Below are positions 17,591-20,000 of a DNA stretch of 20,000 nt, in pieces. Source of the stretch: an uncultured virus (IMG/VR IMGVR_UViG_3300025887_000015) (taxonomy: Duplodnaviria > Heunggongvirae > Uroviricota > Caudoviricetes); IMG/VR virus record IMGVR_UViG_3300025887_000015, positions 58,606 to 78,605 of that record. One strand, 5' to 3'. Made by a program: the position numbers and the translations under genes. How positions within the stretch are numbered: the stretch's first letter is position 1; the number at the start of each line of letters is the position of its first letter. The notes beneath the pieces are model-generated. The model saw nothing but the letters and a program-made list of their open reading frames with translations, was not told the DNA's origin and searched no databases.

Positions 17591-17729
17591 GATTTTGTGG
17601 TTTTAATTAAACATTGATGCAAATATACAATAATATTATATAACCACAAAATAAAACTATATAAAAAATAAATTAAAAAAAACCACAAATTATTTGGTAG
17701 TATCATTTATATTACTTATCTTTGTAATA

Positions 17730-17800
17730 GACAATGAGGAAAGACTCTAAGGGCGGTGACTAACAATCAGGAAGAGTAGACTCCAACCTACCTTATACTC
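17730..17800 (+). ncRNA. Repeated small RNA, copy 6 (5'-extended)
   Basis: Promoter 17717-17724; extra GAG-GAAAGA-CTC hairpin; core 17770-17791; TAAGG/CCTTA closing stem. Confidence 0.65.
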
Positions 17801-17912
17801 AAATTTTTTATTACGCTTGCTACCTATGGCCCCGTAAAGATACAACATTTTTTTTTAATATCCTAATGAAATAAATTTTTTTTATCGAATAATTTATTGT
17901 ATATTTGTATCA

Positions 17913-18125
17913 TACTTCGGTTACTACATAGTAGCCGACCACATACCTCTATGCCAAAAATTTATGGCACTGAGGCAATCCCTTACACGCCTATATCAAA
18001 AAAATCTTGATAGTATGGCACGATACCCCTCATGGCAAATTTTTGCCATGAATGGGGCACCACCTTTTATCCCTATTCCGAAAATTATTTCGGCCACCAA
18101 TCCTAGAACATATTTTATAGGACCA
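17913..18125. repeat. Run of ~6 consecutive inverted repeats in a non-coding block
   Basis: TCGGTTACT/AGTAGCCGA, TGCCA/TGGCA, TATCAA/TTGATA, TCATGGCAAA/TTTGCCATGA, CCGAAA/TTTCGG, TCCTA/TAGGA. Confidence 0.75.
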
Positions 18126-18442
18126 ATTTATCCCTCTTTTTATTATGTACCCATTAGTAAATACCTTATTTACCTGGTACAAGATTTACCTGGGCCGCCT
18201 GAGAAATCTCTTAAAAATTTTGGCAATTTAAACACACGGGTCGGACTATTTCTTGGGAAATGATTTATTCATATATAACACGAATATCTCTATCGTGGAA
18301 TTTTGTGGTAAAAAGTGGTAAAAGGTGGTATCCCCGAAATAATGCATACGTGTCGTGTCATTCTGAGACAGGTATCATAAAGGGTTCTTTAAAACGCATT
18401 TCTAGGGGTATTTCCCTGTATATCTTTCTTAAATTGTCCTAC

Positions 18443-18578
18443 TACACAAATGTGTACCTATATGGCCTTAGAGGGGCTTATATATTGTGATATATTTAAT
18501 AATACACAAATGTGTACCTATGTATATATCCTTATGTATTATTTGGTTTTATCATATGTTTATGGACACATTTGTGTA
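18443..18578. promoter_or_regulatory. Three palindromic TACACA-AA-TGTGTA boxes (putative protein-binding sites)
   Basis: 18443-18456, 18503-18516 and inverted 18565-18578; also at 6672-6685. Confidence 0.6.
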
Positions 18579-18712
18579 CATGGTTATTAGGGGTTATAAA
18601 TTTTTGTATTTAATAGGGAGTTCACCCATAGTGTATTTGGATTATTTTTAGAATAGTATAGATGTCTTGGGAGAATAGATTTATTAGCATTTATAGTAAT
18701 TATGTATTTCCA

Positions 18713-19060: not shown

Positions 19061-19113
19061 TATCTATTGTTTTAGTAGTTTGTTTTTAAATTAATTTCGA
19101 CAATTAAAACTGT

Positions 19114-19166
19114 CGATAACAGTTGCTATAAATCATTAAAACGATTCATAGCTTTGTGTTGTAAAC
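19114..19166 (-). repeat. attC-like hairpin element (AAC-arm-loop-arm-GTT)
   Basis: Minus strand TTACAAC..GCTATGAATC..GATTTATAGC..GTTATCG. Confidence 0.55.
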
Positions 19167-19174
19167 AATAAGCA

Positions 19175-19444
19175 CTAATCAAATTCTTCTCCGCAAGTGT
19201 CGCATTGTTTAAACATAAGTTCGCCCTCTCTACCATAGCAAGGTGTATAATCCTCGTGCTTACAGTTAACAACACGTGGTATAGTTAATTTATTTATTAG
19301 CTCTATCACTAATTTTGCTTCGTTACAGCTCAATAAAATACCTTCTTGGTAATTCCAACTAACGCTATCTAAATCTTCATTCATTTTAACCGCAAAATCA
19401 ATTGAGGCTTGTAATCTGTTTTTTAACAATTTTGCTTTATTCAT
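19175..19444 (-). CDS. Two-module protein: N-terminal part, IPRV linker, C-terminal CxH...CxxC module
   Basis: 89 aa; reads through the arm of a long inverted repeat. Confidence 0.75.
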   Translation of the reverse strand: MNKAKLLKNRLQASIDFAVKMNEDLDSVSWNYQEGILLSCNEAKLVIELINKLTIPRVVNCKHEDYTPCYGREGELMFKQCDTCGEEFD

Positions 19445-19500
19445 TGTTTCCGTTTTTTAAATCCATAAATAAACTAACCATACCACCATACGTTAGGTGC
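19265..19500 (-). repeat. Expanded attC-like element with 22-bp arms enclosing a gene start
   Basis: 19276-19297 vs 19465-19486 inverted repeat, 20/22 match, flanked by AAC/GTT. Confidence 0.65.
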
Positions 19501-19508
19501 AATAAAAA

Positions 19509-19640
19509 TTACTCTATTGCAAGTATCTGTATTTCTAATAAAATTAAGTTTATTTCTGTTTTTCTTATATTACTAAGCATAGTGCTATTTACTTTGTCAT
19601 CTGCTTTTTTAACTAATTCAAGTATTTTATTTGTTTTCAT
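19509..19640 (-). CDS. Small hypothetical protein (43 aa, not in ORF track)
   Basis: MKTNKILELVKKADDKVN... Confidence 0.5.
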   Translation of the reverse strand: MKTNKILELVKKADDKVNSTMLSNIRKTEINLILLEIQILAIE

Positions 19641-19689
19641 TTTTATAAATTTAGTATTAATAATACGCTACTAATCATACACAATACAG

Positions 19690-20000
19690 TTATGCACAAG
19701 GTGGCTTAGGTATTTCAGCCCAATGTGTAATTCCCAAATAATTGTACCAATAACTTTTACCATCTCTGTGATACCAAGTATCAAATTCCACATTACCGTC
19801 TCTTAACACTAAATACTGTTTTGTTTCGTCAGAAGGTTGTTGCTCTTTAGCCACCACCCATTGCATAACATTGGGTATAAAACAGTTTTTTACTAAGTCC
19901 TCTGCCCAATCAATGTTTAGGTGGTCATCTTCATCTAATACTATTCCTTTAGCGTGTAAATCAAAGAATTTTTTGTAATGCTTAATTATTGTGTTCTTAA
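19690..20000 (-). CDS. Partial gene with C-terminal DUF551-like domain after an IPNV linker
   Basis: Frame open from the window edge: ...DLVKNCFIPNV-MQWVVAKEQQP...ITHWAEIPKPPCA*. Confidence 0.75.
   Translation of the reverse strand, partial: KNTIIKHYKKFFDLHAKGIVLDEDDHLNIDWAEDLVKNCFIPNVMQWVVAKEQQPSDETKQYLVLRDGNVEFDTWYHRDGKSYWYNYLGITHWAEIPKPPCA

Follow-up and report, generated by a model that had tools for sequence, protein, structure and literature searches.

A conserved DNA word of about 45 to 55 nt, present in two orientations in small accessory genes of Bacteroidota phages, very probably marks the borders of domain-sized cassettes that are shuffled at these joints. Each cassette has complementary ends that co-vary, and we are highly confident that this pairing is selected. 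In the reading that we favor, with a probability of about 0.5, cassettes are exchanged through the homology that the portable joints provide, and each is made self-contained by its fold. The DNA analyzed here (the window, 20,000 nt) is the terminal part of a 78.6-kb T4-like phage contig that is only 22% complete. A sequence-only reading of the window had proposed that site-specific recombination at attC-like elements swaps protein domains in frame. Domain shuffling holds; the defining attC features are lacking, the contig carries no tyrosine recombinase, and an integron at this locus is doubtful.

A frame-preserving joint makes any front module combinable with any back module, and would thus allow new small phage proteins to be built quickly. 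The joints also offer a concrete case for the old question of whether modular phage exchange runs on dedicated linker sequences, and nature's own design for expression cassettes that are portable and self-insulating. Should a recombinase turn out to act at the folded joint, the system would be the first of integron-like type to shuffle protein domains. No description of a linker/anti-linker element was found in a literature search.

In its forward orientation, the word is in frame and is translated as an inter-domain linker, K-N/K-L/C-T/S-I-P-x-V-V, often followed by G-Q-S-E-Q-L. The inverted word, or anti-linker, is untranslated and occupies the space from the stop codon of one gene to the start codon of the next. 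Two small genes of the window share the layout of an N-module, a conserved linker (LTIPRVV or CFIPNVM) and a C-module. Helix A, between anti-linker and linker, closes the 5'UTR, the start codon and the N-module. Helix B, between the linker and the region after the stop codon, closes the C-module and the stop codon, and the two helices abut inside the linker. The features are the following, in window positions unless a locus (L) is named.

19690 to 20000, minus strand: DUF551-like gene, with N-module, linker CFIPNVM (19884–19864) and C-module
L006:1574–1592, beyond the window: left arm of helix A, DUF551-like gene
19873 to 19891, minus strand: right arm of helix A, DUF551-like gene, mapped from L006
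19853 to 19881, minus strand: left arm of helix B, DUF551-like module, mapped from L006
19674 to 19704, minus strand: right arm of helix B, DUF551-like module, spanning the stop codon
19660 to 19688, minus strand: anti-linker-like word preceding the 43-aa ORF; the same word lies upstream of the gene at L007:97
19509 to 19640, minus strand: 43-aa ORF without linker, from the ORF list
19465 to 19500, minus strand: anti-linker, the inverted linker copy in the 5'UTR of the 89-aa gene, where the homology block with L007 begins
19465 to 19486, minus strand: left arm of helix A, 89-aa gene, within the anti-linker
19175 to 19444, minus strand: 89-aa gene (ORF), with N-module (residues 1–52), linker LTIPRVV and C-module (residues 60–89)
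19288 to 19268, minus strand: linker LTIPRVV of the 89-aa gene, residues 53–59
19276 to 19297, minus strand: right arm of helix A, 89-aa gene, the 5' half of the linker codons (INKLTIPR)
19256 to 19275, minus strand: left arm of helix B, 89-aa gene, comprising the linker's 3' half and the first Cys-module codons
19156 to 19175, minus strand: right arm of helix B, 89-aa gene, beginning in the stop codon
19097 to 19152, minus strand: two local hairpins after the gene pair, terminator-like, from folding and a terminator scan

The module limits of the 89-aa protein were set from its relatives. Its AF2 model comprises two small domains with an unstructured stretch between them (residues 53–65), and a fold search with this model gave no PDB match at E ≤ 0.001. 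The C-module, into which the frame continues from the INKLTIPR codons, is a zinc-ribbon-like Cys module. The DUF551-like gene starts 7 nt past the window end, as mapped from L006, where the complete gene of 105 aa lies at 1623–1940. It scores 20.6 bits against PF04448 (DUF551; E 8.5e-4), the Pfam gathering cut-off being 22, and 6 of its 64 listed relatives have a precomputed match to this family. The 43-aa ORF is possibly an N-module-only or decayed unit. The word ahead of it has no downstream pairing partner, and the match depth of contigs from other runs piles up around this word, at 19640–19713. No partner was found for the upstream region of a 115-aa ORF either, and we read the opposite-strand ORF at 19402–19674 as a by-product of AT-rich antisense. 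Paralogy of the N-modules of the two linker genes was considered and rejected: neither BLASTP nor phmmer gave a match within the contig, and the likeness seen by eye is that of the linker only. The contig holds two linkers and one strict anti-linker, all in its last 1 kb. A tRNA scan found none, and Rfam scans returned nothing.

Relatives of both genes bear out that the modules behave as cassettes, with homologous N- and C-modules in many pairings, and that they are joined at the linker, whose DNA makes up the repeat arms. Only one of the 38 relatives of the 89-aa protein is full length. Residues 1–59 alone are shared by 25 of them, with visibly different C-termini, and the Cys module alone by 12, behind 12 different N-termini. 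Most of the 64 relatives of the DUF551-like gene cover just 33–73% of the query, at 60–94% identity, and in the 34 of these that were inspected, CFIP(N/D)V connects its N-module with C-modules of many kinds. The C-module CSCGSIKV..NNRCSSAN is found behind both N-module families (P0022/P0023 and P0064).

The same borders are seen in the DNA. The window and L007 are approximately 92% identical, as estimated from the alignment, from anti-linker to linker, and beyond these limits they are unrelated. Another run's contig, of 5664 nt, matches at 19161–19495 only, with flanks that are unlike the window on both sides. Matches to contigs of other runs end at 19161 and 19158, and a loose match end at 19291 translates as the N-terminus of P0009. 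Anti-linkers are the sites at which whole genes are exchanged. Breakpoints had been expected at a fixed G/TT; the apparent breakpoints are instead spread over the joint of about 50 nt, between about −20 and +35 nt relative to the linker center. Short-sided joints of 20–22 nt in contigs of other runs were considered as excision products and are read instead as relatives with replaced modules.

Across relatives on other contigs, linker DNA forms a block of about 50 nt that is letter-identical between otherwise unrelated genes; L010a and L090, and likewise L009 and L010b, have unrelated modules and share this block only. The protein gives little reason for letter-perfect DNA, since the AF2 model shows no structure in the linker. 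The anti-linker is placed 6–30 nt ahead of the start codon, and its conserved 3' tail extends past the helix. An ATG is always present inside it. It might begin a conserved uORF, but frame and length (2 to 15 codons) differ among genes, and in one gene it reads in frame into the main ORF.

Phages with these joints include T4-like, jumbo and temperate ones, their hosts being marine and freshwater Bacteroidota; a tblastn search of cultured phages gave no match to the 89-aa protein. In a blind search with just the anti-linker, 7 of 10 matches in viral contigs were followed by a gene whose best partner was an in-frame VKNC[SA]IPxV linker. Such a gene also followed 5 of 47 matches in genome contigs, and these 5 were all in Bacteroidota. 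Scans of viral contigs by protein or alignments yielded only 2 real loci; a further candidate, L003, was spurious, being an opposite-strand terminase. A scan with the linker DNA pattern gave 27 loci with only 3 real linker genes.

All three long-range inverted repeats described from the window are confirmed. The first is 22 nt long and 91% complementary (19276–19297 with 19465–19486, loop of 167 nt), the second 20 nt and 85% (19156–19175 with 19256–19275) and the third 16 nt and 81% (19689–19704 with 19854–19869). Chance was estimated from 60 dinucleotide-preserving shuffles of the window (match +1, mismatch −2, loop ≤400 nt). Two repeats scoring at least 16 were observed, one of them the 22-nt repeat, versus 0.033 expected per shuffle, and 16 was reached in 2 of the 60 shuffles. 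The 20-nt and 16-nt repeats, hand-scored at 11 and 7 on this scale, are alone at chance level, and their weight comes only from comparison with relatives.

This comparison covers 12 to 15 genes. In 12 of 15 genes, the 75 nt preceding the start codon form their best duplex with the linker, helix A being missing in the other 3. Its energies are −22 to −38 kcal/mol, versus −14 to −21 for the second-best partner, with z of −3.1 to −7.5 against shuffled controls. The mean is −31.6 for a gene's own pair versus −20.7 with the linkers of other genes, and the own linker ranks best in 9 of 12 genes. In the DUF551-like gene, helix A has E −27.5 versus −18.1 for the second best. RNAalifold recovers helix A unaided. 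In the alignment, 96.5% of cells are paired, compared to 43–49% in slid controls. Ten of the 23 pairs have changed on both sides, a number reached by none of 500 shuffles, although many sequences are mutually related and pair counts thus overstate independent events. All four letters occur at the silent third base of the linker Pro codon, and the anti-linker has the matching letter every time. Two G·U pairs are the same in every variant, for which pairing alone gives no explanation. Helix B is weaker. Just 10 of the 15 genes have one that is equaled in 5 or fewer of 200 shuffles, and a gene's own partner ranks first in 4 of 15. For the DUF551-like module its z is −4.0 (0 of 200 shuffles), and in the 89-aa gene its right arm is the 5' half of the next anti-linker, ending ..TACAAC.

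The helix A alignment contains 243 Watson-Crick, 55 G·T, 8 A·C and 34 other pairs. G·U mismatches outnumber A·C, and the fold is therefore on the coding-sense strand, which the sequence-only reading had also named. The coding-sense unit folds at −83.6 kcal/mol (z −3.8) versus −56 (z −1.5) for the antisense strand. The fold may act mainly as RNA, at a little short of even odds.

Two local hairpins, at 19152–19125 and 19116–19097, follow the gene pair and are joined by an outer AACA/UGUU stem of 4 bp. The unit (−22.5 kcal/mol, z −4.25, 0 of 200 shuffles) had been described at 19114–19166 as a compact member of the same series. The structure is real and of a different kind, an ordinary terminator-like pair of local hairpins; 19116–19097 is the sole terminator-like site in a simple scan. 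In the anti-linkers, a sigma-70 scan, which does not include promoters of Bacteroidota (probably the host phylum), gave no promoter-like site on the gene strand. No Bacteroidota-type −7 motif was found by eye, and no local stem-loop was seen.

In the favored reading, co-infecting phages would exchange cassettes through their short shared joints, either by homologous recombination or by gene conversion, as has been proposed for the PeSL joints of T4-type phages. Here, one joint sits inside the reading frame, so that a swap would preserve the frame. The fold-back would form most likely in mRNA, possibly also in single-stranded DNA, and would bring the cassette ends together whatever the neighbors, making the cassette a self-contained unit. 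Homologous recombination needs no complementarity of cassette ends, and this reading thus explains the fold only by a second, putative function. On the whole, exchange seems somewhat likelier to be homologous than site-specific.

The joints might instead undergo integron-like, site-specific recombination of folded single strands, which we find doubtful. Anti-linker and linker would together rebuild a recombinase site whose outer box is ..AAC/GTT.. and whose inner box is GGTATGG/CTATACC, with a bubble in the center, at codon x of IPxVV. An Xer/IntI-like tyrosine recombinase, of phage or host, would excise, insert or swap domain cassettes in frame at this site. The architecture parallels that of attC in its two paired boxes around an unpaired spacer, its conserved structure with co-varying sequence and its strand-biased folding, and the cassette borders coincide with the paired boxes. 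Two tandem linker genes in a prophage-like region of Aequorivita echinoideorum JCM 30378 are followed, 58 nt downstream, by a recombinase of 269 aa. A homologue of 268 aa (39% identical, E 6e-53), the only PF00589 match in a complete 327-kb phage, is located about 0.4–1.8 kb from two linker genes. At two further recombinase loci a linker gene lies 2–4.5 kb upstream on the same strand. The best NCBIfam matches of these small recombinases are XerA/integron-integrase models. An Xer/IntI-like recombinase beside linker genes in 4 genomes fits this alternative better than it fits homologous exchange.

Other observations speak against it. A tyrosine recombinase is present next to linker genes in those 4 other genomes, but the 78.6-kb contig, at 22% completeness, has no PF00589 match (the search control was positive in 14 of 14 genomes). 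Of 10 other virus records with linker genes or the module, 7 yielded no tyrosine recombinase either. A linker gene occurs at only 3 of 80 loci of the recombinase family, seed included, which is too few for an obligatory partner. Integron integrases are tyrosine recombinases with an IntI-specific extra segment, encoded beside the array; on TIGR02249 the small recombinases score 124–156 bits, below the integron-integrase cut-off of 265. An attC site is a compact non-coding hairpin of about 57–141 nt behind the cassette ORF, with core words RYYYAAC (R'') and GTTRRRY (R'), and its bottom, non-coding strand folds and recombines. The words found here, TTACAAC or CTAACG.. and GTTGTTA or GTTGTAG, fit this consensus at AAC and GTT only; the stems enclose 80–170 nt of coding module, and the coding (top) strand folds. 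The claim of attC-like elements is thus not supported as stated, and the spread of apparent breakpoints also disfavors site-specific exchange. A phage counterpart of the integron that works on protein domains, with a translated site and a phage Xer/IntI-like enzyme, or perhaps host XerCD elsewhere, is graded as unlikely. Such an enzyme would cut at the edges of the 9-nt center (codons I-P-x), and N- and C-modules would be excised, captured and re-paired in frame, giving combinatorial two-domain early proteins shared among unrelated Bacteroidota phages.

The pairing could also be purely an mRNA device of small early genes, for translation, stability or processing, with the linker conserved because of the protein, for instance as a peptide for docking or protease cleavage, and the shuffling being ordinary mosaicism. 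The G·U-rich pairing on the coding-sense strand, the fixed place of the anti-linker before the start and its conserved tail would suit such a device, as would the many linkers that run on as x-S/R-E-Q/L-L. We consider it quite improbable: the S-E-Q-L part is missing from both window genes, the linker is unstructured in the model, and silent linker positions are letter-identical between unrelated genes of different genomes. Moreover, each of the two modules has cassette borders that match paired words at either side, and nothing of the kind is expected of a device for expression alone. Each module might, finally, be a miniature transposon-like element mobilized by a transposase in trans, as matched inverted ends of about 20–30 nt that differ between units, and units in unrelated phage types, could suggest, but this is very improbable given that no transposase was noticed in passing, no target-site duplications were seen, one arm type flanks at least 10 unrelated N-modules, the order, orientation and reading frame of the units are constant, and an excess of G·T over A·C is unexpected for double-stranded terminal repeats.

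The favored reading, portable homology at folded joints, can be compared with three known systems. As with integron attC sites, the borders lie at imperfect inverted repeats with outer ..AAC/GTT.. words and a central unpaired spacer, structure is kept more than sequence, one strand is preferred, and Xer/IntI-like recombinases lie near some arrays. Unlike attC, the linker stem encloses a coding module, the site is translated, the coding strand folds and the R-box words depart from the consensus. The linker cassettes are domains, not genes, and an IntI-type integrase, attI and Pc were not found.

In shufflon-type systems, a dedicated invertase flips DNA between inverted sites, and alternative ends are stored nearby in opposite orientation. 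Shufflons and invertible tail-fibre or hsdS segments have the recombination site inside coding sequence (PMC7672463, PMC5903667). The linker joints resemble shufflons and invertons in that an in-frame site lets alternative C-terminal parts join a constant N-terminal part. They differ in that the linker modules are all on one strand, no stored alternative is seen, the contig has no recombinase, and variation is between genomes, not within a clone.

The promoter-early stem-loops (PeSLs) of T4-type phages are untranslated and directly oriented, combine a sigma-70 promoter with a local terminator hairpin, and are proposed exchange points for the modular shuffling of small accessory genes (PMC2839356, PMC4122927). 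Unlike PeSLs as portrayed there, the linker joints have no visible promoter or local hairpin, and a second, inverted copy lies in the reading frame, is translated as a domain linker and pairs with the first over 80–170 nt. Like PeSLs in those same accounts, they are short conserved intergenic words that bound exchanged small genes in a T4-like contig.

The small genes at the end of the window are assembled from domain-sized and gene-sized cassettes bounded by one joint word in two orientations. In one orientation the word is translated as an in-frame linker between two modules (LTIPRVV in the gene for an 89-aa protein, CFIPNVM in the DUF551-like gene). In the other it is an untranslated inverted copy, present in the 5'UTR and again just past the stop codon.

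19444-19175, minus strand: gene for the 89-aa protein, composed of an N-module, the linker and a Cys C-module

For the 89-aa protein AlphaFold predicts a pair of small domains linked by an unstructured stretch, and no solved fold matched this model at E ≤ 0.001. A word-indexed search returned 38 relatives. One matches from end to end. In 25 the similarity is confined to residues 1-59 (54-97% identity there, with visibly different C-termini), and in the other 12 to the Cys module (82-100% identity where aligned), which is preceded in the alignments by 12 different N-termini. The DUF551-like gene is seen complete, at 105 aa, on an identical metagenome contig (L006); most of its 64 relatives have a query coverage of 33-73%, and in the 34 that were read CFIP(N/D)V joins one DUF551-like N-module to many C-modules. 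One C-module is common to both N-module families (relative proteins P0022 and P0023 versus P0064). Many of the relatives are known as proteins only. Homologous modules thus occur in different pairings, as the sequence-only reading had anticipated, since relatives of both genes show mixed combinations of N- and C-modules.

The modules recombine at the joint word, which is conserved as DNA. In anchored, ungapped comparisons, genes of different origin whose N- and C-modules are unrelated have nothing in common but a linker block of ~50 nt with sharp edges, identical at silent sites (for example between locus L010a and the Aequorivita locus, L090, or between loci L009 and L010b). Genes that share one module are similar across that module to a point within the linker, past which they are unrelated. 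Counted from the Ile codon, N-side identity ends at about 0-2, +12, +14, +31 and +35 and C-side identity starts at about -20, -17, -9, -3 and +10, the first values of both lists including linker-only pairs. The -9 value derives from a contig of another run, whose loose end at 19291 translates as the N-terminus of relative protein P0009. Because the linker halves exist as subtypes that have themselves recombined, these limits are apparent breakpoints, which neither define a single cut site nor fully rule one out. Many linkers encode x-S/R-E-Q/L-L in their 3' half (GQSEQL, QQRELL, KSDSELL), as seen at loci L001, L009, L010, L023, L028, L044-L046 and L090 and in many relative proteins; this part is absent from both window genes.

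The word in the 5'UTR reads (T/C)AAC-G, a 4-6 nt spacer, GGTATGG, a T-run and ACGGATT, and ends 6-30 nt ahead of the ATG. It is the reverse complement of the entire linker and is therefore named the anti-linker; its pairing with the linker (19465-19486 with 19276-19297) is termed helix A. The main pairing tests covered 15 genes with DNA, comprising at least 8 unrelated N-modules but few independent DNA sequences, and ~12 more genes were seen in scans. When all 30-nt windows of each gene were compared, the best partner of the 75 nt 5' of the start codon was the linker in 12 of the 15, at -22 to -38 kcal/mol versus -14 to -21 for the runner-up; helix A is missing from L006:823, L013:5387 and the degenerate L013:2842. 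Shuffling of the upstream region gave helix A z-scores of -3.1 to -7.5. Upstream regions averaged -31.6 with their own linker versus -20.7 with linkers from other genes, and the own linker ranked best in 9/12 genes and second or third in the remainder, which involve near-identical family members.

Helix A was also predicted unprompted by RNAalifold from five genes of one N-module family. In the pair count, 96.5% of cells are paired and both sides have changed in 10 of 23 pairs, a level reached by none of 500 shuffles, with slid controls 43-49% paired. Across genes, all four bases (A, T, C and G) occur at the silent third position of the Pro codon, and the upstream arm carries the matching letter each time. 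A second anti-linker variant (..GTATGATTAGTAGCG..) lies at 19660-19688 in the window, 5' of a 43-aa linker-less ORF and with no pairing partner, and at L007:55-68; contigs from other runs stack up over it, with a depth peak at 19640-19713. An inner helix within the N-module coding region of the 89-aa gene family (alignment A4, columns 107-118 with 186-197; IDFA codons with EAKL codons) is predicted in all five sequences, and is neutral on structure because its sequence never varies.

The region past the stop codon pairs best with the linker's 3' half in about 13 of the 15 genes (helix B; 19156-19175 with 19256-19275 in the window). Helix B pairs less strictly than helix A: own pairs average -23.8 versus -16.6 with other genes, and at most 5 of 200 shuffles reach the own pair in 10 genes, the other 5 being indistinguishable from shuffles. 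In tandem arrays, most clearly at the Aequorivita locus, one anti-linker is shared by both neighbours, its 5' half pairing with the linker of the preceding gene and its 3' half with that of the following gene. A repeat search of the window recovered the three inverted repeats reported from sequence alone, at the positions given there. Two repeats, the 22-nt one included, reach its score, against 0.033 expected per window (60 dinucleotide-preserving shuffles), and the 20-nt and 16-nt repeats, with scores of 11 and 7 when rated by hand in the same way, are unremarkable by themselves. The supposed compact unit resolved into two plain hairpins 3' of the gene. The 356-nt unit 19505-19150 folds in the coding sense at -83.6 kcal/mol (z -3.8, 0/100 shuffles), with helices A and B abutting without a gap in MFE and centroid alike; the opposite strand reaches -56 kcal/mol (z -1.5). 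Helix A contains 55 G·T versus 8 A·C juxtapositions, a G·T count inflated by related sequences, two such pairs being fixed in all genes; the base composition of the coding strand, taken as rough frequencies, presumably accounts for only a ~1.5-fold excess. Both measures agree with the earlier suggestion that the coding strand is favoured for folding.

Whole genes move as units as well. The match between the window and a 5664-nt contig of another run is limited to 19161-19495, with 13 differences and both flanks unlike, and a second contig matches 19158-19482; the borders of both fall within ..AAC words of anti-linkers. Similarity between the window and locus L007 is likewise confined to the anti-linker-to-linker stretch. 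A scan with the anti-linker word alone gave 10 viral-contig matches, in 7 of which the word pairs best with a VKNC[SA]IPxV linker read in frame within the following gene (-31 to -41 kcal/mol), adding 6 new module combinations on contigs of 5 to 327 kb. Among genome contigs there were 47 matches, against an estimated ~35 expected by chance. Five are genuine (a Saprospiraceae MAG, Maribacter, Aequorivita and two Flavobacteriaceae MAGs); a sixth strong-scoring one was rejected as a GC-rich false match. Since all genuine matches fall in Bacteroidota, the hosts are probably Bacteroidota.

The element is found in T4-like, jumbo and temperate-looking phages. The window forms the final 20 kb of a virus record of 78,605 bases (22% complete by CheckV). 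Genes on this record for a T4-type major capsid protein (PF07068, 1.3e-70) and large terminase, together with those for a ClpB-like ATPase, thymidylate synthase and a NUMOD4/HNH endonuclease, identify it as a large T4-related myovirus. There the element occupies only the last 1 kb, plus 1.6 kb further on seen on L006, in a series of small minus-strand ORFs nearly without family matches. HNH/NUMOD-type homing endonuclease genes lie near accessory regions (L002:2331-2867; genome G000 49043-50530, or L043:9043-10530), the former immediately 5' of a stand-alone N-module gene with neither linker nor C-module. Window positions 17600-18700 comprise ~1.1 kb with no convincing gene-strand ORF, tRNA or Rfam family and a local sign change of GC skew. 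They hold a 13-nt palindromic word (18443-18455 and 18503-18515, inverted at 18566-18578) and a 95% inverted repeat of 19 nt (17615-17633 with 17894-17912) as rare in shuffles as helix A, and are possibly an origin or regulatory region.

The main rival explanation is integron-like site-specific recombination at the joints, which would account jointly for the complementarity, the conserved boxes and the borders, and is backed by a recombinase lead. On the Aequorivita scaffold a 269-aa tyrosine recombinase lies 58 nt 3' of two tandem linker genes, and a complete 327-kb phage encodes, as its sole PF00589 match, a homologue of 268 aa (39% identical, E 6e-53) that has two linker genes ~0.4-1.8 kb away. 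Both match XerA/integron-integrase models best, with scores under the cut-offs. Small (~268 aa) Xer/IntI-like tyrosine recombinases are widespread in viral contigs (150 tblastn-confirmed stretches, 80 kept), with one just downstream of linker genes in four genomes. Two loci of the family are:

L103:11311-12120, minus strand: small Xer/IntI-like tyrosine recombinase
L105:6818-7624, minus strand: small Xer/IntI-like tyrosine recombinase

A linker gene with helix A occurs in 3 of the 80 viral loci of this family (seed counted), 0.5-4.5 kb upstream on the same strand. This is a lead and not an established link: no tyrosine recombinase was found in the 22%-complete window contig, nor in 7 of the 10 other virus records, mostly fragments, in which linker genes or the module occur, so that most contexts show no such enzyme. 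Counting further against this rival, the repeats lack the attC features that could be checked.

We favour exchange running on the joints themselves as short portable homology, one joint being translated. The cassette ends co-vary, with complementarity retained on the coding-sense strand, and we infer that the fold-back is under selection. As a first guess it would act in the mRNA, every cassette folding alike whatever its context; alternatively, pairing of the joints in single-stranded DNA might bring neighbouring joints together, which would make exchange more likely to be precise and in frame. Homology-based exchange of this kind resembles that at the promoter-early stem-loops (PeSLs) that form cassette joints in T4-type phages, which are proposed to provide short portable homology for exchange (PMC2839356, PMC4122927). 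Compared with PeSLs, the special feature here is that one of the joints is translated.
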